From Patescibacteria group bacterium (GTDB lineage: Bacteria > Patescibacteriota > Microgenomatia > UBA1400 > PJMF01), in the NCBI GenBank assembly GCA_016861205.1, contig BOKX01000001.1:1076589-1140588 (forward strand): a stretch of 64,000 nucleotides of DNA, written 5' to 3'. Under the pieces are notes generated by a model. It saw nothing but the letters and a program-made list of their open reading frames with translations. It had not been told where the DNA came from and did no database searches. The position numbers and the translations under genes are program-made. Of the stretch, positions 29,184-62,186 are shown one piece after another. Numbering within the stretch: the stretch's first letter is position 1; each line of letters begins with the position of its first letter.

Positions 29184-29951
29184 ATGCGTCGACGAGAAAA
29201 ATTTGTAATCGCATCCATTTTGTTGAGTCTTGGTTTGCTGGCCATGCAGTACGTGTCACTGGAGTGGCGATACTTGGCAGTCGGGGTGCTGACCATGATT
29301 TCATTTGCGGTGTCAGGTTGGGCTTTGGCAGATGATTTGCAACGACATGAGTGGCTGACCATTGTGCCGTTTCCGGCTTTGTACACGATGGCGGTAGGAT
29401 TATTTTACTTTTTGTTACCAACAAACTTGGTAAGTAAATTTGCTATTTTAGCCTTGTTTTCAGTGGGCATGTACGGTCTGTACTTGACCTCAAATATTTT
29501 TTCGGTAGCGAAGGGGAGAACAATCCAGTTGTTGCACGCGGCTCATGCCATTGGTCTGCTGTTCACCTTACTGACTTCGCTGTTGTTTACGAATACCTTG
29601 TTTTCGCTGCGGTTTCCGTTTTACATCAATGGCTTGGGAATTGGGCTCGTGCATTTTCCATTGATTTTGATGTCATTATGGTCGGTTCAACTCGATAAAC
29701 GGTTGAGTGCCCAAGTAACCGGACTTACATCGTTGTTAACGTTGGTGCTAGTCGAGGTCGGCATCGTCATTTCGCTCTATCCGCTGTCAGCTTGGAACCA
29801 GGCGTTGTTTATCATGGCATTGGCCTATATTGGATTGGGAATTTTCCATAACTACCTCAAGGGGAGACTGTTTGCTAACACCTTGACGGAGTACTCATTG
29901 GTGGCTGTGTTTGTCGGAGCCATTTTTGTGTTGTTATTTCCAGGTAAATAA
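29184..29951 (+). CDS. hypothetical polytopic membrane protein
   Basis: A 255-aa ORF with at least seven hydrophobic helices. Confidence 0.5.
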   Translation: MRRREKFVIASILLSLGLLAMQYVSLEWRYLAVGVLTMISFAVSGWALADDLQRHEWLTIVPFPALYTMAVGLFYFLLPTNLVSKFAILALFSVGMYGLYLTSNIFSVAKGRTIQLLHAAHAIGLLFTLLTSLLFTNTLFSLRFPFYINGLGIGLVHFPLILMSLWSVQLDKRLSAQVTGLTSLLTLVLVEVGIVISLYPLSAWNQALFIMALAYIGLGIFHNYLKGRLFANTLTEYSLVAVFVGAIFVLLFPGK

Positions 29952-31638
29952 AAATCAGCTTTTGAAGCATCTTGGTCGTTTTTTTTAAACAAAAACGGAT
30001 TTTGTGGGCAGAAAAAAACTGTGTTGGCTGGACGAGGGGAGAGACCAGGCTAAAAAGGGGTAGATGATATAGTTTGATGCAGTATATCAAACTATATCAT
30101 GATTGTGGAAAACTTTCGTAAATTATAGGACATAATCTCGGGCTACCAGGCTAAAATAAATGTTTCACGCGTGAAAACAAATGTCAGGTTAACCAAACGC
30201 GACCAGGCAGTTTTCAGGCTGTCTCCTCTGGGGAGAGCAGCAGAAAAGAAAACCCGAATGCCTGTTTAGCCTGGTGCAAGAATAATTAGCCTGGTACCAG
30301 GCTACATAGTACGAGAGACCCAAGAGGGGTCAAAATGCCTGTCATCAGTGATGATGGGAATAGTCCAGATTAAATGCAGTGTGGCACACTGATTTCACCA
30401 GATAAAAAAACTGTGAGTTGGAAATTTCCTCGGTCTACTCCGTCGGGCGAGGGAGCAAGAATCAGAGCATAGATTATGTCGCACAATATTACTTTTACGA
30501 CATTAACTAAAAATACTCGAGGTAGGTCTGATTAGCTGTCTTGCCTTACAACTGGTTATTTTTGGTGCTGATTTTATCTGTATTATTCTTTTTGCTCTCA
30601 AATCAATCCATTTCCCCACATCTGTTAACTGTCTTTAAATCTGCCCGTTGTGACCAGATCTGACCAGGCTTGATTCTTGAGGGTGTCTCGCCTCTTCTTG
30701 GCCAACTTTAGCCTGGTGTAATCTGGAGAAGGGTGTGGTTACCAGCTTCAAATTGGCGGCAGAATAGATTTGAGCCACAACGACCGAGTTTTAGCTGGTT
30801 AGAGCTAACACACCAATGACCACTAGGTCGGATTTGAAATAAAAAGCCGATTTTGGGCGTTTAGGAGGCTTAATTTTTAGCCTGGAGATTTATATTAACA
30901 TTGATGTATCAATCTTTGATCGTTGGGGGTAAAAATTAGTTGAAAAGGCGGCGGTTGGGATTGGTCACCCAGGCATCAGTACGAGCTGCCAGACTAGGTA
31001 CACTGGTTGCAGCTAAGTACAGACATGTCATGTGACAGTTGGTTGCAATCTGTCACACCGCATAGTTTGTTTGTCCGTTTTGAGCGCCGAGCAAAACTCG
31101 ACCACCGTACAAGCCTGAACTCATAGCCATGAGGGATGTGTCTACAAACCAACCGCGGTGCCTTATGTCGCACAATTTTTTTGGCACTCGCCAATTTTTT
31201 GCCAAGCTAGCTGGCGATGCGTGTGTGCTACACATCGACATATGTACTAAGGTTGGTTTGTAATAGTAGCTAGCCTGTCCAAACCACTAGTACGGCGCTG
31301 TTTCATAATCGAATCGAAGTTCGAAGGGTGTTTTTTTGTTTTTTTAAAGTTGGTAAGCAACTGCCGAAACCATTCGGCCGTTATAGTGTACAGTTGACCT
31401 TTTTTTGCCTGGACTCAGTTTTAGGTTCGACCTTATTTTTTATTGATATATCAATCCCCACATCAAGATGATGGTTTTAGCAGAATTTAAGAAGTTCTGC
31501 CAAAGACTTATAGTATTTGAACTTGAGGTGATCTTGAGAGAGGTGGGTAGGGGGTGTGCCCTCCCCTGTCGCCGAACCAAGCTCAAAAGGTGAGCTTTCT
31601 GATATGGTTTTGGCGTAGCTGCATGATACCATGAAAGC
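29952..31638. other. 1.7-kb AT-rich non-coding island with repeated TTAGCCTGGT motifs, palindromes and direct repeats
   Basis: No ORF of 60 aa or more lies in 29952-30993, and only three short, implausible ones follow. The island is visibly lower in GC than its flanks. The individual repeats are listed in the findings. Confidence 0.6.
30287..30304. repeat. 18-bp perfect palindrome TAGCCTGGTACCAGGCTA
   Basis: Read directly from the sequence. It contains two back-to-back copies of the island's recurring TTAGCCTGGT motif. Confidence 0.7.
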
Positions 31639-32574
31639 ATGGCTGTCTCGACTAAACCTGCAGTAGCGTTAGTGACCTTTCTTGAGCATCTCGAGGTTGA
31701 GCGAAATGTCAGCCGACTGACGATTCGAAACTATGGTCACTATCTGCGCCGTTTTTGTGACTGGTTCGCAACACAAGGCGGTCAGGACCTCAAGACCCTT
31801 GATGCTGATGTGATTCGCCAGTATCGCGTCTACTTGGCTCGATATGTGGATGATCAAGGCAGGACACTTTCCAAGAAAACCCAGAGCTACTATGTGATTG
31901 CACTAAGATCTTGGCTCAAGTGGTTGACCAAGCAGGATGCTCCTGTGCTCAATCCAACTAAGATTGATCTGCCGAAAGCTGAGTCGCAATCAATGAAGTT
32001 TTTAAATGTTGAGCAGGTTGAACGGTTGTTGGCGCAACCAAAGTTGTCGAGTAAAACCGGACTGCGAGACAAGGCGCTACTAGAAGTCTTGTTTTCAACC
32101 GGATTACGGGTTAGTGAACTGGTGTCACTCAATCGGGATCAAGTTGATACTAGTCGTCGTGAGTTTGGAGTGATTGGAAAAGGTCGCCGACCACGGGTGG
32201 TTTTCTTAAGTGACCGGGCCGCTGATTGGGTTAACAAATGGTTAGCGAGTCGTGAAGATAATTGGAGACCGGTATTTATTCGGCTAAGTCGCAATAAACC
32301 TGATTTGCTCAGCGATGGTGAGGATATGCGTTTAACAACTCGCAGTGTGCAGAGGTTGGTAGATACATACTGTCGGCAAGCTCGGCTGCCCGTCAAAATT
32401 AGTCCGCACGGTTTGCGGCACAGTTTTGCCACTGATCTTCTGTCGAACGGAGCTGGTCTGCGCGACGTGCAAGAAATGCTCGGTCACAAGAGTATTGCTA
32501 CCACCCAAATTTATACGCATGTCACCCGGCCACAACTTCGCAAGATTCATGGTGAGTACCATAGCAAACTATGA
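31639..32574 (+). CDS. site-specific tyrosine recombinase, XerC/XerD family
   Basis: The N-terminal core-binding domain resembles XerD. Catalytic motifs LLEVLFSTGLRVSELVSL and HGLRHSFAT...LGHKSIATTQIYTHV carry the conserved R..H..R.Y residues. Confidence 0.85.
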   Translation: MAVSTKPAVALVTFLEHLEVERNVSRLTIRNYGHYLRRFCDWFATQGGQDLKTLDADVIRQYRVYLARYVDDQGRTLSKKTQSYYVIALRSWLKWLTKQDAPVLNPTKIDLPKAESQSMKFLNVEQVERLLAQPKLSSKTGLRDKALLEVLFSTGLRVSELVSLNRDQVDTSRREFGVIGKGRRPRVVFLSDRAADWVNKWLASREDNWRPVFIRLSRNKPDLLSDGEDMRLTTRSVQRLVDTYCRQARLPVKISPHGLRHSFATDLLSNGAGLRDVQEMLGHKSIATTQIYTHVTRPQLRKIHGEYHSKL

Positions 32575-32842
32575 TTTTTTGTTTAATACAGTTGTTTTCT
32601 GTATCATATTAAATTGGCAGTCATCGTCCAATATTGCTAGGATTGAAGATCCAAAATAAAGATTGATCTATAGATATAAAAATAGGCATCGTTTTTTGTC
32701 CTTCTCTCCCCTCTTTTTTAGCCACCAAACTATATCAATTTTTATCAAAACATATTTTTAACGTGCTTTATATGTCGAATAACTATAGATGGGTCGAGAC
32801 AGTGTGTGTAACGTGTGATAAAATAAATCTCTTAAAATCAGT

Positions 32843-32916
32843 GGGCCGATAGCTCAGTTGGCTAGAGCGCCTGCATGGCATGCAGGAGGCCAGGGGTTCG
32901 AGTCCCCTTCGGTCCA
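32843..32916 (+). tRNA. tRNA-Ala (anticodon GGC), CCA encoded at 32917-32919
   Basis: GGGCCGA acceptor stem with a G3:U70 wobble, D-arm GCTC/GAGC, anticodon loop ATGGCAT, T-arm AGGGG-TTCGAGT-CCCCT, and discriminator A followed by CCA. Confidence 0.85.
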
Positions 32917-32939
32917 CCAGATATATCCCCTGATTTTTT

Positions 32940-41174: not shown

Positions 41175-41951
41175 TCATGTACTCGTGGTTTGACTGAGTT
41201 GGAAGAAGGCCTGCTCGAGAACCAGCTTGACGTTGCCATTTGCCACTAAGTTTTGGTAGGCCTGCAAGAGCACTTGCTGGTGTTGGGTGGTCAGGCGAGT
41301 TGGTGGCAAGCCATGAACATATGTCACCAAAGTGTGGAGCGCGGTAACGGCTGTTTCCCGATCTGGGTACTGGCCAGCTAACTCAATGCTCTGCCAAGCT
41401 GGTGCGGTACGCAGTGTTTGATAGAGATCAGCCGGTGGCAGTTGGTCTGTTTTACTCTCTTTTTCAGGTGACATGATGGTGGTTTGAGACCAAGTGATCA
41501 GACGACAGCGACTGTGAATGGTTGGTAGCACCAAAGTGGGGTTGGCAGTGGTCAAAAGGAGTAGCGTTCGGACGGGTGGTTCCTCGAGCAACTTGAGTAA
41601 TGCGTTTTGGGCTGGAATTGAAGCCTGATCGAGCTTAGCCAAACCAATGACTCTGACTTGGCCAGGGTCGACACTGTAGCTAGTACTCATCAACAGTTCT
41701 CGAACTTGATCGATGCTAGGTGGAGTTTCACCGTTGTTGAGCCACTCGACTGCCTGGGTGGTTGGCAAATCAAACTGCTCTGTTAGCCAGGAGTGCAGTA
41801 AGTCAACATCTGGTAGGTTACTCGTAACCAGTAGTTGAGGTAAGAAAGTGGCGGATGACAGGACTCGAGTCATACCAGTATTATAGATGGTAGTTATGAC
41901 GGACACTGCCCCGGAAACTGTGGTGCCTAGCTCCACCCCTGATCCGGTCAC
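41175..41951 (-). CDS. holB: DNA polymerase III delta-prime-like subunit
   Basis: The motif ALLKLLEEPP ... TLLLLTTANPTLVLPTIHSRCRLI matches the delta/delta-prime clamp-loader signature. The N-terminus is divergent and the start is uncertain. Confidence 0.6.
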   Translation of the reverse strand: MTGSGVELGTTVSGAVSVITTIYNTGMTRVLSSATFLPQLLVTSNLPDVDLLHSWLTEQFDLPTTQAVEWLNNGETPPSIDQVRELLMSTSYSVDPGQVRVIGLAKLDQASIPAQNALLKLLEEPPVRTLLLLTTANPTLVLPTIHSRCRLITWSQTTIMSPEKESKTDQLPPADLYQTLRTAPAWQSIELAGQYPDRETAVTALHTLVTYVHGLPPTRLTTQHQQVLLQAYQNLVANGNVKLVLEQAFFQLSQTTST

Positions 41952-43902
41952 TACTGCCAGCCCCTCCTCTGCCTCACCTGTTCAGACAGCTGGCGTACCT
42001 GTTCCAACATTGGAGCCAATCAAGATCGAGCCGACGGTGCCGACTCCTGTTCCGGCTGAGCCAGTAGCGTCACCAGTCCCGCCGATTTCTGCCCCGCCCA
42101 TTACTCCCGCCGCGCCGCTGACGAATCCACTTTTAGCCAGCCAACCAGCGGCTGCAACAACGCCAGACCAACCCCCACAGAGTGTCGGCGAAATTTTGTT
42201 AGCCAAAGGTTTGCTGACGAAAGAACAGTACAACCAGCTCGAGTTGGAAAACATAAACGGTGGCTCTTCCCTCGAGGCGCTCATTGAAGAGAAAAAGCTG
42301 GTTCCAGAAGAAGCCCTGACAGAGGCTCGCTCCGCGCTCAACAACATCCCCTATATTAAGTTAGAAGAAGTTGGTGTTTCCCCTGAGGCGTTGACCCAGT
42401 TGCCCGAAGGTGTCGCTCGACGCTACTTCATGTTGCCATTTGCGCTGAATAAGCAGGATCACACGTTGTCAGTGGCCATGCGTGATCCGATGGATATTTT
42501 GGCTATCGATTTTGCCGAGCAAAAAAGTGGCTATCACCTGATCCCCTACTACGCCACGCCATCCGAGCTTGAGCGCATGATTGCCGAGCGCTACGCACAA
42601 AGTCTATCGACAGAGGTGACGCAAGCATTGGAAGAGACAAAACAAGTTGCCGATGACAAACGTCAGCTACAAGACTTGTCGGTGCTGTCTGGTGAAGTGG
42701 TCAAACAAGCCCCAATTACGAAAATTGTGGAGACAGTTTTGGCATTTGCCATGAAAGCCCGAGCCTCAGATATTCATATCGAGCCACAGCCCTCCAAAAC
42801 CCGTGTTCGATATCGGATCGATGGTATTTTGGTTGAAAAATTAATTTTGCCAAAGTCTGTTCACGAAGCGGTGGTTTCCAGAATCAAGATTCTATCTGAC
42901 CTGAAAATCGACGAGAAACGGGTGCCTCAGGATGGTCGGTTCACGTTTATGTCGTCAGGCGAAGAAGTTGACTTGCGTGTTTCGACGCTGCCGACTATTC
43001 ATGGTGAAAAAGTGGTGATGCGGTTGTTGAAGAAAAACTCGACAGTTCCCAGTTTGAACGAACTAGGGCTGCGTGACTTAGCACTGCGCAAGGTTGAAGA
43101 TTCAATCAAAGTACCCCATGGCATCGTACTGGTAACCGGTCCAACTGGCTCCGGTAAAACTACTACGCTCTACTCGGTGCTGCACAAAATTAACACACCC
43201 AAAGTCAACATTGTGACTTTGGAGGATCCAGTTGAGTACCAAATGGCTGGTATCAACCAAGTTCAGATCAACCCGCAGGCTGGTTTGACGTTTGCATCGG
43301 GTCTCCGTTCATTCTTGCGGCAAGATCCCAACATTATCATGGTGGGAGAAATCCGGGATGGCGAAACAGTTGAGCTAGCTATCCAGGCGTCGTTAACTGG
43401 TCACTTGGTCTTCTCTACTCTGCACACTTCCTCGGCTGCAGGTGCTATTCCTCGTATGATTGATATGGGAGCGGAACCTTTCCTGCTGGCGTCATCTATG
43501 ACCCTAACCATGGCACAGCGGGTGGTGCGCAAGATTAATGAAGCTTACATTGAGCAATACACTCCCGAGCCACCGGTGGTTCAGGACGTTAAAAACGTCT
43601 TGGGTGATCGCTATTCAGCCTGGTGCAAACAGAACAACAAGGATCCCAACCAAATGATTCTGTACCGAGCAAAAGCGGATCGGCCGCAAACAGAACCTGA
43701 GTACAAGGGCCGAGTAGCTATTTTTGAAGTCATGCCGATTACGGAAGAAATTAGCAAGCTCATCCTTGAGCGAAAAAGTGCGGCTGACCTTGAAAAGGTA
43801 GCCATCCGAGATGGTATGCTGTTAATGAAGCAGGATGGTTATTTGAAAGCGTTAGACGGTATTACCACTATTGAGGAAGTACTGCGTGTGGCGCAGGTGT
43901 AA
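41887..43902 (+). CDS. pilB: type IV pilus assembly ATPase PilB (GspE family) with Pro/Ala-rich N-terminal extension
   Basis: It has Walker A GPTGSGKTTT, Asp/His boxes, a GspE N-terminal domain and a tetra-Cys region. The first roughly 110 aa are Pro-rich low complexity. Confidence 0.85.
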   Translation: MVVMTDTAPETVVPSSTPDPVTTASPSSASPVQTAGVPVPTLEPIKIEPTVPTPVPAEPVASPVPPISAPPITPAAPLTNPLLASQPAAATTPDQPPQSVGEILLAKGLLTKEQYNQLELENINGGSSLEALIEEKKLVPEEALTEARSALNNIPYIKLEEVGVSPEALTQLPEGVARRYFMLPFALNKQDHTLSVAMRDPMDILAIDFAEQKSGYHLIPYYATPSELERMIAERYAQSLSTEVTQALEETKQVADDKRQLQDLSVLSGEVVKQAPITKIVETVLAFAMKARASDIHIEPQPSKTRVRYRIDGILVEKLILPKSVHEAVVSRIKILSDLKIDEKRVPQDGRFTFMSSGEEVDLRVSTLPTIHGEKVVMRLLKKNSTVPSLNELGLRDLALRKVEDSIKVPHGIVLVTGPTGSGKTTTLYSVLHKINTPKVNIVTLEDPVEYQMAGINQVQINPQAGLTFASGLRSFLRQDPNIIMVGEIRDGETVELAIQASLTGHLVFSTLHTSSAAGAIPRMIDMGAEPFLLASSMTLTMAQRVVRKINEAYIEQYTPEPPVVQDVKNVLGDRYSAWCKQNNKDPNQMILYRAKADRPQTEPEYKGRVAIFEVMPITEEISKLILERKSAADLEKVAIRDGMLLMKQDGYLKALDGITTIEEVLRVAQV

Positions 43903-43955
43903 GTACAGTTTTGTAGTAAGCGAATTGGAAGTTAGGAGACTAGAACAATTAAGGA

Positions 43956-44013
43956 GTTTTAAACTTGTCTTTTGCCTGATTTCTCTCTGGAAGGTAAAAG
44001 ACAAGTTTAAAAC
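43956..44013 (+). promoter_or_regulatory. long perfect hairpin in pilT leader (18-bp stem GTTTTAAACTTGTCTTTT / AAAAGACAAGTTTAAAAC, 22-nt loop)
   Basis: The arms are exact reverse complements. AAGGAG sits immediately 5' of the stem. The loop contains tttctctctggaagg, and the ATG follows 8 nt after the stem. Confidence 0.4.
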
Positions 44014-44021
44014 GAACTTTT

Positions 44022-45080
44022 ATGAACATTCACGACATTCTCCAACTAGCGGTTGATAAAGATGCTTCAGATATTCACTTGATCACTAAAATTCCGATCA
44101 TGCTGCGGGTTCACGGCCAACTGTCACCCGTGGAGGGATCGCCTCCCCAGCTGACTCCGGAACAAGCTGAGGCGCTGATTTTTCCGCTCATGACCCAGGA
44201 GCAAAAAGACTATGTTTTGGTAAACAAGGAAATTGACTTTGGGTACCAGTACAAAGATCTCGGTCGGTTCCGTATCAATGTGTACCACCAACAAGGTGCC
44301 ATGGCAGCCGCTTTGCGGTTGATTCCGTCGCGGGTCAAGAGCATCGAAGAACTGCAGTTACCGCAAGTTTTTTACCAGTTTACTGAGTACAAACAGGGCT
44401 TAGTGTTAGTGACCGGTCCGACTGGTGAAGGTAAGTCAACAACCTTAGCTGCGCTGATTGAACATATTAACGCCAACCGAAGTGAACACATCCTGACAAT
44501 TGAAGACCCTATCGAGTTTGTCTACACCCCACGCAACAGTATCGTGTCTCAACGGGAGATCAATCATGACACCAACGGCTGGGAAGTTGCGTTGCGGTCT
44601 GCTTTGCGCGAGGACCCTGACGTAGTACTCGTTGGTGAGTTACGCGACTACGAAACGATCGCATCGGCCATGACGATTGCTGAAACCGGACACTTAGTGT
44701 TTGCCACACTTCATACTTCGACGGCGGCCCAAACAATCGATCGTATCATCGATGTGTTCCCTGCCCATCAACAGGGCCAGGTTCGGCAACAGTTGGCCTC
44801 GTCTTTACAGGCAGTAGTGTCGCAGCGCTTGATCCCTAAAGTGGATGGCGGCCGAGTTCCGGCATTCGAGATCATGTTGGCAACGCCAGCTATTCGCAAC
44901 CTGATCCGTGAACAGAAGACCTTCCAAATCGACAACGTCATTCAGACCTCAGCTGAGCAAGGTATGTCACTGATTGAAACCTACTTGTGGAACCTCGTGC
45001 AACGAGGCGCAGTTAACCACGATAAAGCCCGTGAACATGCGTTTCGCCCTGATGAGTTTGATCGCCTAGGAGGTAGATAA
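44022..45080 (+). CDS. pilT: twitching motility ATPase PilT
   Basis: It has Walker A GPTGEGKSTT, the PilT signature region AIRNLIRE, and is 352 aa. Confidence 0.85.
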   Translation: MNIHDILQLAVDKDASDIHLITKIPIMLRVHGQLSPVEGSPPQLTPEQAEALIFPLMTQEQKDYVLVNKEIDFGYQYKDLGRFRINVYHQQGAMAAALRLIPSRVKSIEELQLPQVFYQFTEYKQGLVLVTGPTGEGKSTTLAALIEHINANRSEHILTIEDPIEFVYTPRNSIVSQREINHDTNGWEVALRSALREDPDVVLVGELRDYETIASAMTIAETGHLVFATLHTSTAAQTIDRIIDVFPAHQQGQVRQQLASSLQAVVSQRLIPKVDGGRVPAFEIMLATPAIRNLIREQKTFQIDNVIQTSAEQGMSLIETYLWNLVQRGAVNHDKAREHAFRPDEFDRLGGR

Positions 45081-46282
45081 TGGCATTGTTTGCTTACTCT
45101 GCCAAGAACGATCACGGTGAGCCGGTAAAGGGCAAGGTTGAAGCCCAAACCAAACAACAAGCGGTGGCGGCCTTGCGTGGCCGAAACTTGCTGGTGATTA
45201 GTATTCGCCCAGTTAGTGAAGAGTCATTCGCCATTCTCAAAACCCTGATGTTTGGGATTAAGGCAGATGATGTGGTGAACTTAACTCGTCAACTTTCAAC
45301 CATGATTACCGCTGGTCTGCCGTTGACGCAGGCCTTGGCCATCTTGGAACAACAGGGCAAGCCAGCCTTGATTAAGGTTGTTGGTCAAGTGAAAGCAGAC
45401 ATTGAAGGTGGCAGTACGTTTGCGGCAGCTCTGGCCAAGCATCCCAAGGTTTTTTCTCGCGTCTATATACAGTTAGTGCGGGCTGGCGAAACCGGTGGTG
45501 TCCTCGATGAGGTGTTGCTTCGGTTAGCAGACAACATGGAAAAGGACAAAGAGTTTCGTGCCAAGACTAAAGGTGCGTTGATCTATCCAGTGATTGTGGT
45601 GATTGCGATGATCATCGTCGCCATGGTCATGATGATTTTTGTAATTCCCAAACTGACCGAAATGTACAAGGATTTCGGGGCAGATTTGCCATTGGCTACC
45701 CAACTCCTAATTGACACCTCAACCCTCGTTTCCCGTTTTTGGTGGTTGCTGGGCGTTTTCGGTGCAGTTGGAGTGATGTTTTTCCGCAGCTGGGGTAAAA
45801 CGCACGCCGGCCAAGTTGCCATCGACAGTTTTTTGCTGAGAATGCCGGTCTTTGGTGTTCTGCGTCAAAAAGCCATGCTCACTGAGTTGACACGGACATT
45901 AGCTTTGTTGCTTGGGGCGGGTATCTCACTGCTGCAGGCTTTAGAAATTGTGTCAGATTCGGCAAATAATATCCTGTACCGTGAAGCTTTGGCCGATATT
46001 GCCAAACAAGTTGAGAAAGGTATTTCTCTCGCTCAGGCGGTCGGGGTGCATGCCATTTTCCCCCCACTCCTCTATCAAATGGTGGCGGTGGGTGAAGAGA
46101 CCGGTAAACTCGACGATGTATTGATGAAGTTATCAGCGTACTTTCAGTCGGAAAGTGAACACGCGATTAAAAATCTGACAACAGCCTTAGAGCCAATTAT
46201 CATGATTGTGCTGGGGTTGGGTGTGGGTTTGATGGTCATTGCGATCATCATGCCAATTTACAATCTCACCAGTCAGTTCTAG
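45080..46282 (+). CDS. pilC: type IV pilus platform protein PilC (GspF family)
   Basis: Two GspF repeats with conserved membrane helices. The protein is 400 aa. Confidence 0.85.
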   Translation: MALFAYSAKNDHGEPVKGKVEAQTKQQAVAALRGRNLLVISIRPVSEESFAILKTLMFGIKADDVVNLTRQLSTMITAGLPLTQALAILEQQGKPALIKVVGQVKADIEGGSTFAAALAKHPKVFSRVYIQLVRAGETGGVLDEVLLRLADNMEKDKEFRAKTKGALIYPVIVVIAMIIVAMVMMIFVIPKLTEMYKDFGADLPLATQLLIDTSTLVSRFWWLLGVFGAVGVMFFRSWGKTHAGQVAIDSFLLRMPVFGVLRQKAMLTELTRTLALLLGAGISLLQALEIVSDSANNILYREALADIAKQVEKGISLAQAVGVHAIFPPLLYQMVAVGEETGKLDDVLMKLSAYFQSESEHAIKNLTTALEPIIMIVLGLGVGLMVIAIIMPIYNLTSQF

Positions 46283-46327
46283 CTCTGTTACTGTTAACGT
46301 GAATCTAGTTGCTCTGGAATATTGATT

Positions 46328-46384
46328 GTTTTCAGGATAAGTTAGAGAGCGCCTTTTTAGCGCTCGAGAACTTATCCTGAAAAC
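46328..46384 (+). promoter_or_regulatory. long perfect hairpin upstream of pilin gene (16-bp stem GTTTTCAGGATAAGTT / AACTTATCCTGAAAAC, 25-nt loop with internal GAGCGC/GCGCTC hairpin)
   Basis: The arms are exact reverse complements and lie 43 nt upstream of the pilin ATG. Confidence 0.4.
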
Positions 46385-46426
46385 AACCCTTGCAATCAAC
46401 TTAAAAAATGGTGTACCCTGGAGAAT

Positions 46427-47035
46427 ATGAAACGAATTGCTTCCTACGCTCAGCGGTACCTCAATCAATGTTTGTCAGTCGCTTCCCAAGCAGCTGGTTT
46501 TACCATGATCGAGTTGCTGGTGGTTATCTCGGTAATTGGTGTTTTGGCGGTGGCTGTGCTCTCCTCCATCAACCCTATCGAGCAGATTAACAAAGGTCGA
46601 GACACTCGAACCCGTTCAGACGCAGCACAATTGATCAACGCTGTCGACCGCTACTACGCTATTCACGAAGTGTATCCTTGGAACACTGACAATGGTGCTT
46701 ACACCGCTGCTTCAGCTTTGCCAGAAGATGCCTTTGAAGAGGCTGGTGGCCAAGCTGGTTGGGGCTGGGTCCAGATCTTGGAAGACACCGCTGAAGTCAA
46801 GCAAGGTTTTGTGAACCGCGTGATTGCTGATGACGAGATCCGTATCTTCAAGGCGCAAGGTGCCAACGAAACCATGTACGCTTGTTTCGAGCCGACCTCA
46901 CAAGCTTTCCAACAAGAGGCCGTCACCAACTGTACCAACGGGACAACTCCCGCTGATGGCAGTGCCAACGTTGACCCATGTCCGCCAACTCCGACGCTCA
47001 ATGTTGACCCGCCAGAGCTAATCTGTCTCCCGTAA
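46427..47035 (+). CDS. type IV pilin (major pilin candidate) with long leader peptide
   Basis: The prepilin cleavage/methylation motif G|FTMIELLVVISVIGVLAV follows a 24-aa leader. GGAGA lies 5 nt before the ATG. Confidence 0.75.
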   Translation: MKRIASYAQRYLNQCLSVASQAAGFTMIELLVVISVIGVLAVAVLSSINPIEQINKGRDTRTRSDAAQLINAVDRYYAIHEVYPWNTDNGAYTAASALPEDAFEEAGGQAGWGWVQILEDTAEVKQGFVNRVIADDEIRIFKAQGANETMYACFEPTSQAFQQEAVTNCTNGTTPADGSANVDPCPPTPTLNVDPPELICLP

Positions 47036-47118
47036 TCGAGACACTCACCAAGAAACTGAAACCCCCTCGCCTAGGCGAGGGGGTTTGCGTTTCGGAGGAA
47101 AAGTTTTTATACTCAGGC

Positions 47119-47925
47119 ATGACCTTTTTATTGGTGTCTGGTTTGTTGTTTTTGATTGGAGCTATCTTTGGTAGTTTTTTAAATGTGATTATTTACCGGA
47201 CAGTCAACGATGAGTCTTGGGTTTGGGGCCGGTCAAAGTGTGAAAACTGTCTCAAGCAAATTGCTTGGTATGACAACATTCCGGTGATTTCTTTTTTGAT
47301 TCTAAGAGCTCGCTGTCGGTGGTGCCGAAAACCTATTTCTTTCACGCACCCGGTTTTGGAGTTTTTAACCGGTGCTTTGTTCGTCTGGTGGTACTGGGCG
47401 GGCTCGTTCTTTTTTCAGCTGACGCAACGGCCCTTTCAGACACTGCAACCACTCTTTTGGTTAACAGTGGGAGTCATCTTGCTGGCGATCTTTTTTGCCG
47501 ATCTGCTGTATTATCAGATTCCCGACATTTTGAGTGGTAGTCTGCTGATTATTACGATTGCATATCGGGTGGCATTAACTCTTTTTGGAGTGATGCAGCT
47601 GAGAGACTTGGGATTTGCAGTAATGGCGGTGGTTTTAGGCGTACTGTTTTTTGGAAGTCTTTTCCTCATTACGAAAGGTAAGGGAATGGGGTTGGGAGAC
47701 GTTAAAATTGCTGCTCCCCTAGCGCTGCTGGTGGGATGGCCTGGTTTTCTGGTGACAGTGTTTGGAGCTTTCGTGATGGGCGCGGTGGTGGCGCTGAGCT
47801 TAGTTGTGGCCAAACGACGCAAGTTTGGGCAGGTAGTACCGTTTGGGCCTTTTTTGATCGTAGGCACGTTTGTGGCTTTGCTCTGGGGTGATCAACTGGT
47901 GGCCTGGTACCTTACTTTAATTTAA
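47119..47925 (+). CDS. pilD: prepilin peptidase (A24 family)
   Basis: It has an N-terminal tetra-Cys zinc motif (CENC...CRWC) and a polytopic peptidase A24 domain with the conserved Asp residues. Confidence 0.8.
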   Translation: MTFLLVSGLLFLIGAIFGSFLNVIIYRTVNDESWVWGRSKCENCLKQIAWYDNIPVISFLILRARCRWCRKPISFTHPVLEFLTGALFVWWYWAGSFFFQLTQRPFQTLQPLFWLTVGVILLAIFFADLLYYQIPDILSGSLLIITIAYRVALTLFGVMQLRDLGFAVMAVVLGVLFFGSLFLITKGKGMGLGDVKIAAPLALLVGWPGFLVTVFGAFVMGAVVALSLVVAKRRKFGQVVPFGPFLIVGTFVALLWGDQLVAWYLTLI

Positions 47926-50929: not shown

Positions 50930-51913
50930 TTAAACAGGCAGTTTGTATGTCACCCAACCTTGAGCAGCTTCTCGCCGCAACCAAATACTGAGTGTTTGGG
51001 TTGCGGTGTTAACCACAATTTTGGCAACACTTCGCTCATTGTGAAGACTATGATCAGGCCCGAGAGATTCATCGAGCAGTAGTTTTTTCAAATGTTCAGG
51101 TGTCAAGTAATTTGCGACGTGTTGTTTTGCAAATTGAAGGCGCGTATGTGTGCCCCAGATTTCCCTGCTAGAATGCCGAGAGCCGAGCAAGCAATGATTT
51201 GTGTGACAAAATGGACTCGAGGGGTTGGCAATATGTGCTGAAGAGGCTGTCAATTCAGCGTGCCAGAGCTGCCCGGTTGGACTAGCAAGTAAATGACTAA
51301 AACCAGAAGTCCTGGAAATTTGGGTTAGTTTAGCTAAGTCATGATTAGGATCATGACTGTCTAATAAATATCGTGCTTGGATTAGTTTCGGAACACCCAA
51401 CTGTTTTCGAGTGAATAACAGTGTATTTACAGCATGAACATAGCCTGCAGAATTGATCCCAATAGCCGATCCACCAGGTGTATTGTAGTAGAACAATTCC
51501 AATGTGCGATGTGAACCAATTCTCTTTTGAACAATGCAGACATCATCTTCTCCGCCAAGTACGTGATCTTCACTGTGACCGATCAGTTGTCCATCATTGG
51601 TTACTATTGTTGTGCATTTGGCACGAGCTGGTTTGTGAGGTCCGAACGCATCATCTTCAATTGAGATTGTCCATAAGTCATCGAATGACACTTCTGCCCC
51701 ATCAGCATATCCTCTAAGTTCAGAAACATACTGAGGGAAGTGCTTCTGGGCGTATGTCAGTTGTGCGTGGGCAATCTGGCAGTGGACCGGCCACTGTGTG
51801 TGCTGGTGTGCGGTTTTAATTGCTTGGTATGCTTGGGCAGCAAACTGACGGCCTATCTTGATACCTAAGTCAAAGTGATTGCGCGCGCTAAAGGCATAAA
51901 AGTGCTGATGCAT
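50930..51913 (-). CDS. C45 family peptidase / acyl-CoA:6-aminopenicillanic-acid acyltransferase-like Ntn hydrolase
   Basis: It has a candidate autoprocessing and nucleophile site AKC|TTIV, a GHSEDH box and an NTPGGSAIGIN segment typical of the C45/AAT fold. The protein is 327 aa. Confidence 0.55.
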   Translation of the reverse strand: MHQHFYAFSARNHFDLGIKIGRQFAAQAYQAIKTAHQHTQWPVHCQIAHAQLTYAQKHFPQYVSELRGYADGAEVSFDDLWTISIEDDAFGPHKPARAKCTTIVTNDGQLIGHSEDHVLGGEDDVCIVQKRIGSHRTLELFYYNTPGGSAIGINSAGYVHAVNTLLFTRKQLGVPKLIQARYLLDSHDPNHDLAKLTQISRTSGFSHLLASPTGQLWHAELTASSAHIANPSSPFCHTNHCLLGSRHSSREIWGTHTRLQFAKQHVANYLTPEHLKKLLLDESLGPDHSLHNERSVAKIVVNTATQTLSIWLRREAAQGWVTYKLPV

Positions 51914-51935
51914 ATTTCAGTATACGATACTAGGA

Positions 51936-52940
51936 TTGAGTGGTACTATCAAAAACATGCAATATCGCATATTAGGTAAAACAGGCTTGAAGGTGTCTTC
52001 AATCGGGTGTGGTACTTGGGGATTTGCTAACGACACAGACGCTTGGGTCGGTGCTACAAAAAAGGAGAGTGAGGCAGCGTTATTCTTGGCTTTAGATCAA
52101 GGTGTTAATTTCATTGATACAGCGCGCGTCTATGGTGAGGGTTTGGCGGAAGAGTGGCTCGGTGAAATGTTACAAAAAACATCACAGAAGCAAGTATTGG
52201 TTGCCACAAAGATGACACCACTTAATCAACAGTGGTCAGGTATGGTGGGTACACCAATCAGTGAGGCTTTCCCCAAACAACATATTATTGATCAAGTAGA
52301 TGCTAGTTTGCGAGCACTTCGGCGCGACTATTTGGATGTGGTTTACTTTCATGTTTGGGAAGATGAATGGAGTGATGTACCGAGTTGGAAAGAAGCAGTT
52401 ACAGAATTAACGCAGGCAGGCAAGGTTAGATTCTGGGGTATTTCTACAAATGATTTTCAACCCACTAACTGCCTGAAAGCATGCCAAACAGGACTTATCT
52501 CAGTGATTATGACTATTTTCAACATTTTTGCTCAAGAACCAATTTCAGAGCTTTTGCCAGCTGTTAAGAAAATGAATCTCGGCTTAGTAAGTCGCGTTCC
52601 TTTGGATGAAGGTGGTCTGAGTGGTTCTTACACGCATGACACAGAGTTTCCTGAGGGTGATTTTCGCCAAACCTATTTTTCCAAAGACAGATTAGTACAA
52701 CTTAATAAACATCTCGATGCTTTACGGCCACTGATCAAAAAAAGTAACGCTAAAAATGTAGCTGAGTTTGCATTGCGTTATGTTCTATCATTTCCGGAAG
52801 TCACAGTTGCGGTTCCAGGCATGCGCAGACAAAAGTATGTGATTGCCAACACTAAGGTTTCTGATTTACCGCCATTACCTCAAGGTGTCCTCGAGGAGAT
52901 GCCGAAACATGCTTGGTTCAGAAATTTTTACGATGCGTAG
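51936..52940 (+). CDS. aldo/keto reductase
   Basis: The AKR N-terminus is present (ILGKTGLKVSSIGCGTWGF ... FIDTARVYGEG) on a (beta/alpha)8 fold. Composition is visibly AT-rich relative to flanking core genes. Confidence 0.8.
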   Translation: MSGTIKNMQYRILGKTGLKVSSIGCGTWGFANDTDAWVGATKKESEAALFLALDQGVNFIDTARVYGEGLAEEWLGEMLQKTSQKQVLVATKMTPLNQQWSGMVGTPISEAFPKQHIIDQVDASLRALRRDYLDVVYFHVWEDEWSDVPSWKEAVTELTQAGKVRFWGISTNDFQPTNCLKACQTGLISVIMTIFNIFAQEPISELLPAVKKMNLGLVSRVPLDEGGLSGSYTHDTEFPEGDFRQTYFSKDRLVQLNKHLDALRPLIKKSNAKNVAEFALRYVLSFPEVTVAVPGMRRQKYVIANTKVSDLPPLPQGVLEEMPKHAWFRNFYDA

Positions 52941-55780
52941 GGATGTAGGAATCGCCTGACATAGTTTTGTAATAGGTCAAGGCTAGAAATAGAAGCAAAT
53001 TGAAGGGAATAGCCGGGACTTACTGCATTGGTTTCTGTCTCAAAAAAATGTATGCCTTTTTCTTTGAGGGCAGAGAAAAAAGGAGCTAGTTGCTTTCCTT
53101 TACCTTGCTTCAGTTGGTCCTCAAGTGTTTTCAGCCAAAGTTCAAAGGAGAGTACGCCGAGTCTTAAATTGGCTTCATCGGAGATGGTTGCAACCGCATC
53201 CGACAACTGTAGTGGCCGCTGATTCTTAAACAATATTTTCTGGTCATTGGATTGTCTTGGTGCTGTTATTGCTTGACTGACTTCATCAACAGGTACTAGA
53301 TCTAACCACCAGTTTACATTGGGAAAGTAGCCAATTTCTAGACAGCTTTGGATAAAAGACCAAAAGAAATCGTGTTCACCAAAAACTGGTCGTTCTAGTC
53401 TGGGTGTTATGGTGGCAGGTGCGACAATGTTTTGCCGATAACCCAGTTTCGAGTAATGCGCAAGTTTCTCTTCATTAATGTACTTCGTTAATTCATATCC
53501 ATCAAAATCACTCAACCTTGCCGATGAAGTTATTGATGCAGTACTGGATGATGATACGAAGGTTACCAAACTGTTTTTTATTTTTCCCGCCAAACGTAAG
53601 ATCTCGTCGAAACTTTGGACATTGACCTTTTTCAAGTCAAAATAGTCCAATAAAAAATTGACCCAGTACCCGACATGATAAATGTACTCCACTTGGTCTA
53701 CTATGATTTGTTCTGATTCTCGACTGATACCCAAATTTGGTTCAGATAAATCACCTAAAATTGGCGTGACTAGTTCCTGTGGATACCGGTCATCAAAGTA
53801 TTTGCGCCAGGTTTTTATGATTTTTTCTTCAGCAAGTGCCAATGAATTTGCTCGCGTTAAACAGTAAACGGGAGTGTCGGCACTGGTAAGCTGATGTAGT
53901 ACATGTATTCCCAGAAAACCAGTTGCACCTGTTAAAAAATGACCGGAACCAGTGCTATCTTTAGTATTTGATTTATTTGATATGAAGTCTGAGGGAAGTA
54001 AAGCATCAGATACTATGTCACGAACTAACGTTGGTTGGGTATCGGGGTTTATTGTTAGCCATGTTCTTATTTTTGATAATGAACGACCGCCATAAAACGC
54101 CTTAAGTGGAATCGGCTCCAAACCAGCGGCTTGCAGATCAAGGTTTATCATTTCAATTGTTAGGGAGTCAGCGCCATGCAGAAAAATATCATCATCAGGA
54201 TTAGTGTCAAACCTAATGTTTTTACGAAAAATTTCCAGATACGTATCAATGTTGGTTCCCGGTGTGGTTTTTGGTAATGCTTGACTTTGTAAGGTTGACC
54301 AAAGTATTTTGCCATCTGCTCGCCTTGGTATCTCATCAACAAAAACAAATTTAATTGGAAGTGTCGGAATACCACTGACGTCAACAGCTTTTTGATACAG
54401 GTTACTTATCCGTTCTGATTTTTCTGATAAAGGAGACACAATAAAACACATTAACATGGTACTCGGTGGCCGATTGACGTGTGATATGGCGATATCAATG
54501 ATCTCGGGGTCATTCCTGAAGGCTTGTTCTAACTTATATAGATCTACTCGGGTGCCATGAATTTTGACCTCTTGGTTGCTTCGGCCTGCTAATTTGTATA
54601 GACCGTTCATGCCTTTTACCACTAAGTCGCCTGTCTTCACTACACGAACGCCTTGATATTCACGAAAGTTTGTTTGTTCCATAGCTGAGAAGTACCCTGG
54701 TGAGAGACCTGCCGAAGAAATATGCAGTTCCCCAATTGTGCCGTCTGGGACCAGATTTTGTTCTTCATCAAGAACAAAAAAACGGGTCGTTCCGAAAGGC
54801 TCACCAATTGGAACAAGCTCATCCGGGGAAAGTGATTCTTCACGAATATCATGGGCAAAGAAAAGACCGTTATCGACAATAGACTCCGTAAGACCATATG
54901 AATTAAGTATCATTGCTTGTGGCCAGGTTGTCCTCAAATCTCTCATTTCTTGAACAAACCATGCTTCAGAACCAACTACGACCAGCTTAGGTTGGTGATG
55001 GTTGGCTTCTGGATTTTCACGTAAATGCCTGATAAGTTGTCGAACGTATGCGGGTGTTATGTCCAGAAAGTCAAGTTTATGCAGATTGATGTATGTAACT
55101 AGTTGATTAATGTTTCGTCTGACCGCCATGGGCACAATATGCATTGTTGCCCCGACTGAATTAACCATAAACATATCATCAAAAAAACCGGCTACGTCAA
55201 AGCCAGACATTACCAAAAACTGCTTGTAGTCTGAAATTGACATTACTTGTTGCCAAGTTTTGACCATTTCGACCCAGCCAGAATAGCTGATCAAAACACC
55301 TTTAGGGATACCGCTTGAGCCTGAGGTAAAAATAATGGCTGCAATGTCTTCGGGTAATTCAATCTGAAGTGATCTCTTGGCATTTTCACTAAATGTGCCA
55401 GTGTCAGTTTGTAGTGTTGTTATGTCTCCAACTCTTCTGACATGCTGAGCAGTGGTTAGTACAATATCGGGGTTAGTCTGGCTCAGTAGCGCATCAATTT
55501 TCTCTTGCGAAGCGGTTGGAGAGATAGGTACAAATGGCCTGCGAAGACGGGTGCAAGCCTGGGTTGCCACGAAAGCTTCAATAGAGGCCTCAAATAACAA
55601 GCCTATGATATGTCGATCCGTTCCGAGATGTTTTTCAAGGGTTGTTGCTAATTTGCTGACTCTTTCGTCTAGTTCTTGGTAGGTGAAAGATTGACCATGA
55701 TCAACGAGGGCAATGCCAGCTGGATTTTTTTTTGCAGACTGCGATAACAAATGTTCTAAATGCATATTCTGTAATTGCAA
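52928..55780 (-). CDS. NRPS-like adenylation-thiolation-reductase (A-T-R) enzyme / carboxylic-acid-reductase-like
   Basis: An adenylation domain carries cores A3 (FTSGSSGIPKGV) and A7/A8 (YKTGDLV ... GRSNQEVKIHGTRVDLYKLE). A carrier-protein domain has a Ser in LHGADSLTIEMI. A C-terminal thioester-reductase NAD-binding motif FLTGATGFLGIH follows. Composition is AT-rich. Confidence 0.75.
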   Translation of the reverse strand: MQLQNMHLEHLLSQSAKKNPAGIALVDHGQSFTYQELDERVSKLATTLEKHLGTDRHIIGLLFEASIEAFVATQACTRLRRPFVPISPTASQEKIDALLSQTNPDIVLTTAQHVRRVGDITTLQTDTGTFSENAKRSLQIELPEDIAAIIFTSGSSGIPKGVLISYSGWVEMVKTWQQVMSISDYKQFLVMSGFDVAGFFDDMFMVNSVGATMHIVPMAVRRNINQLVTYINLHKLDFLDITPAYVRQLIRHLRENPEANHHQPKLVVVGSEAWFVQEMRDLRTTWPQAMILNSYGLTESIVDNGLFFAHDIREESLSPDELVPIGEPFGTTRFFVLDEEQNLVPDGTIGELHISSAGLSPGYFSAMEQTNFREYQGVRVVKTGDLVVKGMNGLYKLAGRSNQEVKIHGTRVDLYKLEQAFRNDPEIIDIAISHVNRPPSTMLMCFIVSPLSEKSERISNLYQKAVDVSGIPTLPIKFVFVDEIPRRADGKILWSTLQSQALPKTTPGTNIDTYLEIFRKNIRFDTNPDDDIFLHGADSLTIEMINLDLQAAGLEPIPLKAFYGGRSLSKIRTWLTINPDTQPTLVRDIVSDALLPSDFISNKSNTKDSTGSGHFLTGATGFLGIHVLHQLTSADTPVYCLTRANSLALAEEKIIKTWRKYFDDRYPQELVTPILGDLSEPNLGISRESEQIIVDQVEYIYHVGYWVNFLLDYFDLKKVNVQSFDEILRLAGKIKNSLVTFVSSSSTASITSSARLSDFDGYELTKYINEEKLAHYSKLGYRQNIVAPATITPRLERPVFGEHDFFWSFIQSCLEIGYFPNVNWWLDLVPVDEVSQAITAPRQSNDQKILFKNQRPLQLSDAVATISDEANLRLGVLSFELWLKTLEDQLKQGKGKQLAPFFSALKEKGIHFFETETNAVSPGYSLQFASISSLDLLQNYVRRFLHPYAS

Positions 55781-55808
55781 AATAGTATAAAGGAGTTAGG
55801 ATGGGCTC

Positions 55809-56078
55809 ATGCAAGAAAAAATCACACCTACTGGTCCCGAAGTACTCCATGCTGAACCTGGTAATTTTATTACCAACCAAATGATGACCCTTGATGACGG
55901 CAGAATAGTACCATCTGGGACCGTTTTGGTCGATGGTGCAAATATCCTACAACTTGAAAAGGGCTTTTACCACTTTCGTGTTGCCCAATTGCCAGGTGGT
56001 GTCCATGAAAACTGTGTGGCAGTAGGTGATGAGTTCGTGTACAAAATTGTTGACAGTCCGGTAAAGCTTGTCAAGTAA
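55809..56078 (+). CDS. small hypothetical protein
   Basis: An 89-aa ORF divergent from the NRPS-like gene. Confidence 0.3.
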   Translation: MQEKITPTGPEVLHAEPGNFITNQMMTLDDGRIVPSGTVLVDGANILQLEKGFYHFRVAQLPGGVHENCVAVGDEFVYKIVDSPVKLVK

Positions 56079-59065: not shown

Positions 59066-59079
59066 TTATTCAGATACAG

Positions 59080-61971: not shown

Positions 61972-62186
61972 CAGAGAAATTGAGGCAGTGCGGTATGAAT
62001 TGATATAGAAACCAATAGTTTTTACTATCGGCCTGTTTGGGGAATTATAAAATTAGCCTGGTAGTACTCTCAATGTGTAACAGATAAGTAAACTATAGGC
62101 TTATGAACGAAGAGCTAAAATATAGCAACACCCTATCTCGGTTGCAATAGGAAAAAAACAGGTTCCGACTTGGCTGAGTAACAGAT

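Follow-up and report, generated by a model that had tools for sequence, protein, structure and literature searches.

Near the middle of a 64-kb stretch of contig BOKX01000001.1 (Patescibacteria group bacterium), hereafter called the window, lies an island without open reading frames (ORFs). It is bordered by a gene for a DUF5656-like membrane protein and by xer, which encodes a tyrosine recombinase of the Xer family. A preliminary description, made from the sequence alone, had pointed to this island, to its repeats and to a recombinase and tRNA-Ala(GGC) following on its right. The two genes are indeed found there. The island also contains a 28-bp site that resembles the dif sites of bacterial chromosomes. 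We suggest, with moderate confidence, that the island is a conserved chromosome-maintenance locus, in which a dif-like Xer core site is linked to the recombinase gene and accompanied by an upstream array of binding motifs. The main features of the locus are as follows, with coordinates referring to the window.

29184-29951, + strand: gene for the DUF5656-like membrane protein, the conserved left neighbor.
29952-31638, no strand: ORF-free island between the DUF5656 membrane gene and xer.
30476-30503, - strand (canonical dif orientation): dif-like Xer core site, composed of ATGTCGCACAA (30476-30486), TATTAC (30487-30492) and TTTTACGACAT (30493-30503).
31165-31175, + strand: lone left arm (ATGTCGCACAA), a half-site without partner arm, within the second copy of a 14-mer at 31163.
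31477-31514, + strand: probable xer promoter/operator, TTAGCAGA-N11-TCTGCCAA followed by a TATAGT -10 element at 31509-31514; kept in 31 genomes.
31639-32574, + strand: xer, encoding a Xer-family tyrosine recombinase of 311 amino acids (aa) with intact catalytic motifs.
32843-32919, + strand: tRNA-Ala(GGC), a constant syntenic neighbor and not an attachment site.

The 28-bp site consists of two 11-bp inverted arms around a 6-bp center (an 11-6-11 dyad), which is the defining architecture of Xer/dif core sites (PMC5357621, PMC2731167). Its lineage-wide form is ATGTCGCACAA / TAWWAC / TTTTRCGACAT, and among 62 unique 28-mers the arms are symmetric at 7-10 of 11 positions. A position weight matrix (PWM) was built from 20 proteobacterial dif sites in Table 1 of Carnoy and Roten (PMC2731167) and used to scan both strands of the window. 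The best of approximately 128,000 positions is exactly 30476-30503, with 13.3 bits against 10.2 bits for the runner-up. In 141 other loci of approximately 10 kb each, the site in its exact register was the best match in 116 and one of the three best in 138. Hardly any variation is seen in the core across 173 unique sequences, over which the neighboring membrane protein falls to 29% identity and Xer to 47%. We consider the 28-mer a likely target of Xer.

The site occurs once in the window. Exact-pattern scans gave one occurrence per contig in at least 120 metagenome contigs and none in viral contigs. One full site per locus was found in the 1.77 Mb of loci searched, with no duplicated sites of the IMEX style, and the core is thus single copy within the window, contigs and loci covered. 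We did not find a canonical CATAA-N6-TTATG site elsewhere. The exact 14-mer repeat at 30474 and 31163, listed in the preliminary description, is real, but it had not been recognized as the left arm of the 28-bp site plus a lone second arm.

Distant relatives (e.g. L092, L100, L106 and L117) carry GGGAAG approximately 20 nt upstream and GGGAGAAGTGG approximately 35-45 nt downstream of the 28-bp site, on the + strand. These purine-rich motifs resemble polar motifs of the FtsK/SpoIIIE type (KOPS/SRS). They do not converge on the site.

The longest ORF in the island is at most 77 aa, and gene callers leave positions 29952-31638 empty in five independent assemblies of the same species. The region between the membrane protein gene and xer in related genomes is here called the gap. 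A tblastx comparison against approximately 65 related gaps gave matches, in all six frames, that were confined to nucleotide-conserved blocks, with no protein-level conservation; hidden coding was rejected on this basis. The GC content of the island is 0.43 compared to approximately 0.49 in the window, a modest dip of only about 6 points under the flanks. The absence of a credible ORF and the lowered GC content were thus correctly described at the outset.

The window belongs to a Patescibacteria genome of the 'Pacebacteria' kind. We fetched 80 related genomes using the DUF5656-like membrane protein left of the island as query. The gene order yebC, DUF5656 gene, island, xer, tRNA-Ala(GGC) is kept in approximately 190 related genomes, and it persists down to identities of only 29-35% for the membrane protein and 47-60% for Xer. 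The preliminary description had left open whether the island is present or absent between the membrane gene and xer in relatives; it is present in all of them. Within the order, Xer is 72-80% identical and among the best-conserved proteins of the locus. Most gaps are 951-2000 nt long (median 1689), and their GC content is always a few points under that of the locus. Between clades most of the gap sequence is unalignable, and what remains is a series of colinear blocks. The conserved core spans approximately 30036-30913, and the remainder up to xer is variable among genomes. The blocks are listed here.

Approximately 30036-30131: block A, with a purine-rich tract, TGATATAGTTTGATA (which contains TGATATAG twice, 10 bp apart), TGTGGAWAA and TTATAGGAC.
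30251-30258, + strand: conserved single-copy block AACCCGAA, found in 58 of 59 gaps.
30473-30508: block B, containing the 28-bp dyad.
30831-30886: block C, AAAAAGCCGATTTTGGGC...GGCTT, terminator-like; together with the palindrome ATTGATGTATCAAT it forms a module at 30831-30913.
Just before xer, in part of the genomes: block D, the palindrome TTAGCAGA-N11-TCTGCTAA followed by a TATAGT -10 element.

The motifs within these blocks vary in copy number, order and orientation among genomes. TGATATAGTTTGATA is found single, in tandem or inverted, TATAGGAC and TTTTCACG are inverted in distant relatives, and the module of block C, approximately 85 bp, is flipped in two clades. Such variation fits arrays of protein-binding sites in DNA, not the helices of a folded RNA, and supports the cluster of binding sites that was among the explanations first proposed for the island. 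Accessory genes are inserted on either side of the core from block A to block C, never inside it. Two clades carry a gene of approximately 200 aa between block C and xer, which by eye is similar to GNAT-type acetyltransferases. It lies approximately 1000 nt into the gap on the + strand (gaps L019, L023, L028, L038, L046, L049, L072 and L084). Gaps L010, L020, L029, L061 and L083 have other, unrelated genes as insertions ahead of block A.

Many metagenome contigs end approximately 100-1200 nt from the membrane gene, or within approximately 100 nt of the 28-bp site (L007, L015, L016, L021, L027, L045, L064, L070; L099, L102, L110-L112, L133, L138, L150, L155, L156). The ultra-conserved 28-bp site appears to break assemblies as rRNA genes do.

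The recombinase scores approximately 250 bits against the XerC and the XerD hidden Markov model alike, below the equivalog cut-offs, and assignment to either XerC or XerD is not possible. The XerA model gives 206 bits and the XerS model only 114 bits. The closest match in PDB is XerD of E. coli (1a0p). It should be noted that PDB chain 9i5v_14 (401 residues, labelled 'Ribosome-associated translation inhibitor RaiA') matches Xer over its full length with E = 2e-28; it looks as if this label is wrong, or the chain a fusion.

The linkage of site and gene is constant. In 145 of 145 loci xer is located downstream of the core site and on the same strand, at a distance of 238-5495 nt (median 983 nt), and it is the one Xer gene seen in the window. 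Of 64 distant genomes, 43 have a lone arm (GTCGCACAA; GTCGCACAAT) at most 220 nt from the start of xer, and 15 of these 43 have it fused to a TTGAC-N17-TAnnnT promoter, at the -35 element. The position of lone arms at xer promoters argues that the arm is a protein-binding DNA motif in its own right. Lone arms most likely serve autoregulation of xer. Many genomes have an extended -10-like element directly before xer. The tRNA-Ala promoters of the lineage are also of the extended -10 type (TGnTAAAAT or TGATACAAT), with a weak -35 (32796-32824 in the window, with equivalents in 24 loci).

We suggest that the island is the non-coding half of a module of recombination site plus recombinase, and that it would work as DNA, not as RNA. 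In brief, two subunits of the adjacent Xer, four in the synapse, would bind the arms and cleave at the borders of the central TATTAC. Strand exchange between sister copies would then resolve chromosome dimers or catenanes. Each lone arm would bind a single Xer subunit and so autoregulate xer. We infer Xer binding and the resolution function from the likeness of the site to dif.

Several observations, most of them on chromosomal position, weigh against this proposal. The sign of the GC skew is constant from -30 to +33 kb around the island, with the + strand G-rich on both sides. Third-codon-position skew likewise has the same sign on both sides for genes of either strand, and the sign is unchanged in the flanks of 34-39 of 40 related genomes. 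The site therefore lies at least 30 kb (2.6% of approximately 1.15 Mb) from any shift point. Bacterial dif sites are usually found within approximately 3% of the skew shift point (PMC3025954). In CP011212.1 and BOKR01000001.1, two records that are probably origin-anchored, the distance of the locus from the start is approximately 13% of the genome. Classical dif lacks the constant flanking genes found here. In addition, the counts given above cover the window and contigs, and a second Xer gene or a dif at the terminus may be located elsewhere in the genome. Location at the terminus is a usual feature of dif, and no terminus lies within 30 kb of the site; this weakens the claim of a classical dif without refuting it.

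In published predictions the distance of dif from the skew maximum is 33 kb in Rickettsia and 90 kb in Helicobacter, and dif sites lie up to 3-5% of the genome from the shift (PMC2731167). Archaeal dif does not share the usual location at the terminus: the dif of Sulfolobus lies far outside the termination zones and has a neighboring half-site for one subunit (PMC3020120). The orientation of the locus in CP011212.1 and BOKR01000001.1 is as expected for a fork leaving the origin, and in four Mb-scale records the locus is apparently 110-155 kb away from the ends. A replication or partition locus, one of the explanations in the preliminary description, is close in spirit to a chromosome-maintenance site with DnaA-box-like motifs, but neither an origin nor a terminus was found within 30 kb on either side.

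The motifs that surround the core site, most of them upstream, are listed below. Those named P and M1 recur among the relatives and are described further in the text.

30036-30043: purine-rich GGGGAGAG tract, preceding the M1 pair.
30044-30053, - strand: P copy, tACCAGGCTAAa on the + strand.
30065-30099: M1 pair, two inverted copies of TGATATAGTTTGATA, each with TGATATAG twice, 10 bp apart.
30104-30112, - strand: match to the DnaA-box consensus, TTTTCCACA; TTATCCACA in most relatives.
30123-30131, + strand: conserved TTATAGGAC motif, which follows the DnaA box at 9-11 nt; distant relatives have it duplicated and inverted (CCTATAA).
30145-30154, - strand: P copy, at a conserved position after TTATAGGAC.
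30162-30177: palindrome GTTTCACG/CGTGAAAC, which is GTTTCACGCGTGAAAC, made up of two head-to-head weak DnaA-box-like motifs, (n)TTTTCAC(G/A).
30266-30305: three P copies (30266 +, 30286 +, 30296 -), the last two fused as the palindrome TTAGCCTGGTACCAGGCTAc.
30654-30726: inverted composite pair, CCAGAT-N4-ACCAGGCT / AGCCTGGT-N4-ATCTGG; relatives have single copies in either orientation at the same place.
30877-30886, + strand: P copy with one mismatch.

The palindromes at 30287-30304 (18 bp) and 30162-30177, like the 14-mer, are present as first listed. The inverted repeat reported at 30066-30098 is also there, but its arms are 15 bp each, at 30064-30100, rather than 13; it corresponds to the M1 pair. 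M1 has 111 matches in gaps compared to 6 outside, with 1-3 copies per genome in direct or inverted arrangement. A degenerate copy of TGATATAGTTTGATA lies on the - strand in the spacer between xer and tRNA-Ala (window 32723-32747), and others are found in L019 (10053), L054 (9383) and L085 (9371), 70-140 nt upstream of tRNA-Ala(GGC). The protein that binds M1 may thus also act at the tRNA promoter.

Motifs similar to DnaA boxes are concentrated next to the core. In the 600 nt upstream of the core site the consensus TTWTCCACA has a density of 1.45 per kb compared to 0.024 per kb elsewhere (60-fold), and the weak form nTTTTCAC(A/G) one of 2.05 per kb compared to 0.065 per kb (31-fold). Distant relatives have one strong and two weak boxes within approximately 60 bp. 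There is one strong box per genome, and only four relaxed matches were found in the whole window, one of them here. We found no dnaA or dnaN gene in the window. With one strong box per genome and no dnaA nearby, the region upstream of the core is read as a putative DnaA-responsive accessory or regulatory region, and not as an origin. The conserved motif arrays are found 170-450 bp upstream of the core, at a distance that varies among genomes. We rejected parS as an explanation for GTTTCACGCGTGAAAC; it has two surplus central bases, and relatives have the half-motif as direct repeats.

The 10-mer TTAGCCTGGT, which the preliminary description had placed at the center of attention, is here called the P motif and has the consensus tACCAGGCTAAa. 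Exact copies in the island are found at 30044 and 30145 on the - strand and at 30266, 30286 and 30708 on the + strand, and copies with one mismatch at 30296 (-) and 30877 (+). All coordinates given for it agree. It is over-represented in the window, with 12 copies at up to one mismatch where 3.3 +/- 1.9 are expected and with none of 100 shuffles reaching 12. The 8-mer AGCCTGGT occurs 15 times in the window compared to 1.9 expected, and 7 of these 15 are inside the island. In 67 gaps we counted 174 P copies, 79 in one orientation and 95 in the other, and in the much longer flanks CCAGGCTA occurs only at about the chance rate. A genome has 0-8 copies, and the window is at the maximum of 8. The copies are single or arranged in head-to-head or tail-to-tail palindromes, are gained and lost between close relatives, and are largely missing from distant lineages. 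From this pattern, the P motif is most likely the site of a dimeric DNA-binding protein. The motif is real but secondary to the dif-like core, and it is not confined to the island. An exact copy at 59702 lies inside an ORF. Another, at 62053-62062, lies in the divergent intergenic region 61972-62186, between an unannotated 963-aa gene and a nucleoside 2-deoxyribosyltransferase-like gene. No regulator gene is found beside the copy at 62053, where these two are the neighbors. The P-binding protein may have targets outside the island.

We infer DnaA binding and an accessory role of the upstream region from the motifs and from an analogy. In brief, the 100-450 bp upstream of the core, with TGATATAG repeats, one consensus and 1-3 weak DnaA-box-like motifs, TTATAGGAC and, in the present sub-lineage, 0-8 copies of tACCAGGCTAAa, would be an array to which accessory or regulatory proteins bind. 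If cer and psi are a guide, this region could control when or how the core recombines. One may go further and speculate that dimers are resolved here in the manner of cer/psi and independently of the terminus, with the single Xer licensed by a nucleoprotein complex on the upstream region. DnaA, through the DnaA boxes, and a tACCAGGCTAAa-binding protein would be its accessory factors and would couple unlinking to replication status. We consider this extended version unlikely.

The same motifs could instead belong to a DnaA-binding locus for replication control outside the origin, of the datA/DARS type or the type of the DnaA-box clusters (DBCs) in B. subtilis, with the dif-like site as a separate neighbor or an operator. 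The consensus box (TTATCCACA or TTTTCCACA) is kept across very deep divergence, with 1-3 weak motifs 10-25 bp away, and both the enrichment of the motifs and the conserved chromosomal position of the locus agree with such a role. However, a single strong box per genome is little for a DnaA-binding locus, the weak motif is off consensus at two positions, and the invariant 28-bp dyad and its linkage to xer are left unexplained. This explanation is compatible with our reading of the core site. As an account of the whole island we regard it as a minor possibility.

A non-coding RNA, or several, encoded on the + strand would make block B a hairpin and blocks A and C the promoter and terminator regions. 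Block B was at one stage modelled as an RNA hairpin with an 8-bp stem and an invariant 16-nt loop. The stem, by GTCG/CGAC, shows U-A, U-G and C-G pairs, and covariation exceeds that of the shuffles (0.176 compared to 0.135 and 0.164 compared to 0.122, with none of 500 shuffles as high as the observed value). Different clades carry small hairpins at corresponding positions, although these differ in sequence. The core behaves as a unit that is not interrupted, and it has approximately 1.7 times more long inverted repeats than shuffled sequence. The hairpin was dropped when the 'loop' proved to continue the dyad as 11-6-11. The apparent 'wobble' pair arises because position 2 of each arm is a pyrimidine, covariation at slid registers is as high as that at the proposed register, and in two tests the ratio of G-U to A-C was no higher than in shuffles. 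Pairing of the 'loop' with AAAGTTATAGG of block A was rejected, as the variants track clade and are not compensatory.

The other evidence on RNA agrees with this. Rfam gave no match other than tRNAs, at gathering and permissive thresholds on the window and at the gathering threshold on 11 related loci, and so none to large structured RNAs such as OLE, GOLLD, ROOL, HEARO or RNase P, and ARAGORN found no transfer-messenger RNA. In 120-nt windows the mean folding z-score is -0.8 (+ strand) and -1.0 (- strand) compared to -0.4 in coding DNA, with no strand preference. The covariation term of RNAalifold is only -1.1 kcal/mol over 978 columns in a nine-genome clade. We did not find a conserved promoter of the local tRNA type (TGnTAnAAT) in the core. 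The number, order and orientation of motifs vary as described above, and a whole module is inverted between clades. The large structured RNA suggested in the preliminary description is thus not borne out, and we consider any RNA reading rather improbable.

We give equally little credence to the view that the palindromes and repeats are mere operators or promoters for xer or its neighbors, with the 28-bp dyad as a repressor operator. In distant relatives the arm motif does coincide with the -35 of the xer promoter, and in the present sub-lineage a second palindrome, TTAGCAGA-N11-TCTGCTAA, overlaps that promoter. Against this, the dyad is separated from xer by 238-5495 nt, with whole genes in between in some genomes. 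Its length of 28 bp, its 11-6-11 spacing and its rRNA-like invariance are atypical of operators, and the 28-mer is the best match to an independent dif model.

A chromosomal origin with unidirectional replication, where origin and dif or terminus lie side by side and the skew never switches sign, is very unlikely. The DnaA-box cluster, the iteron-like repeats, the lowered GC content, the dif-like site 370 bp away and the equal skew sign on both sides would suit it. The skew leaves no room for a bidirectional origin or terminus, and the window has neither dnaA nor dnaN and a single strong DnaA box. The position approximately 13% from the start of the two complete records, and the orientation there, fit ordinary bidirectional replication. 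To our knowledge, published complete genomes of the radiation show a V-shaped cumulative skew, which also counts against this explanation.

Scarcely credible is a decayed integrative element beside tRNA-Ala that entered via its tyrosine recombinase, an integrative or mobilizable remnant having been among the first proposals: a recombinase gene does adjoin a tRNA gene and an AT-richer non-coding stretch, but the ancestral gene order, conserved in approximately 190 genomes with the neighbor protein down to 29% identity, is incompatible with recent acquisition, Xer ranks with the best-conserved proteins of the locus, strong purifying selection acts on the blocks, a search for repeats of the tRNA 3'-end found none, and collections of phage/viral and plasmid sequences gave no match.

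Two other regions of the window should be mentioned. Low-GC stretches (0.40-0.44) are found at 51000-56000 and 59000-60000, and one of them encodes a 950-aa protein on the - strand with an AMP-binding and a terminal reductase (NAD_binding_4) domain. These stretches may be laterally acquired. A type IV pilus cluster at 41887-47925, downstream of the gyrB-gyrA region, encodes two T2SSE ATPases, a T2SSF platform protein, a prepilin and a prepilin peptidase.

In the literature searched we found no description of a dif site or of a chromosome-dimer-resolution system in Patescibacteria. If our reading of the locus as a dif-like core linked to xer is correct, a 28-bp site marks one fixed point of the chromosome in hundreds of uncultured genomes, and Patescibacteria have a candidate single-Xer system. 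The site would possibly also be a bacterial counterpart of the Sulfolobus dif in being independent of the terminus. With a conserved cluster of DnaA boxes adjoining it, replication control and chromosome unlinking may be connected; unlinking coupled to replication status, if true, would concern episymbionts with tiny genomes. An invariant site that breaks assemblies is in addition useful for the curation of genomes from metagenomes.

The closest parallels in organization are XerS/difSL and XerH/difH, which are modules of a linked site and a single recombinase (PMC5357621, PMC2731167). As in these, a dif-type dyad with near-symmetric arms is linked to a single Xer gene and located in non-coding, low-GC DNA. 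The center of difSL is 11 bp, whereas it is 6 bp here, and XerS and XerH are approximately 355 aa compared to the 311-aa protein of XerC/D type encoded here. Furthermore, the site is not immediately adjacent to the gene but 0.24-5.5 kb away, and a conserved upstream region of a few hundred bp is present. While difSL is located at the terminus, no skew shift was found within 30 kb of the present site.

With classical XerCD/dif of Proteobacteria and Firmicutes the site shares the length of 28 bp, the 11-6-11 layout, the inner arm bases AA/N6/TTnTG and the top match to the PWM. The dif of Magnetospirillum, CGTCGCCATAA TATACA TTATGCGACAA, is very similar to the 28-mer. The present locus departs from the classical system in its single observed Xer gene, which is linked to the site, in the higher symmetry of the arms, in its constant flanks and in showing no sign of a terminus. 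Archaeal XerA/dif of Sulfolobus solfataricus likewise combines a single recombinase with an 11-6-11 site, and the off-terminus position and the lone arms have parallels there. The host is here bacterial, however, and presumably has one origin.

Sites of the cer/psi type work independently of FtsK and of chromosomal position (PMC5357621). Next to their Xer core lie accessory sequences of approximately 180 bp, to which ArgR/PepA or ArcA/PepA bind. Similarly, non-coding DNA rich in predicted protein-binding sites extends for a few hundred bp on one side of the core described here. In contrast to the plasmid sites, the element is chromosomal, its accessory motifs (DnaA-box-like motifs, TGATATAG repeats and tACCAGGCTAAa) are unrelated, and these motifs lie farther from the core, at a variable distance (170-450 bp).

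The upstream region also invites comparison with datA and DARS1/2 of E. coli and the DBCs of B. subtilis, which are non-coding loci with a few DnaA boxes and a conserved position relative to the origin. Compared to these, the locus in Patescibacteria has one consensus box together with weak ones, and the boxes are coupled to a dif-like site.

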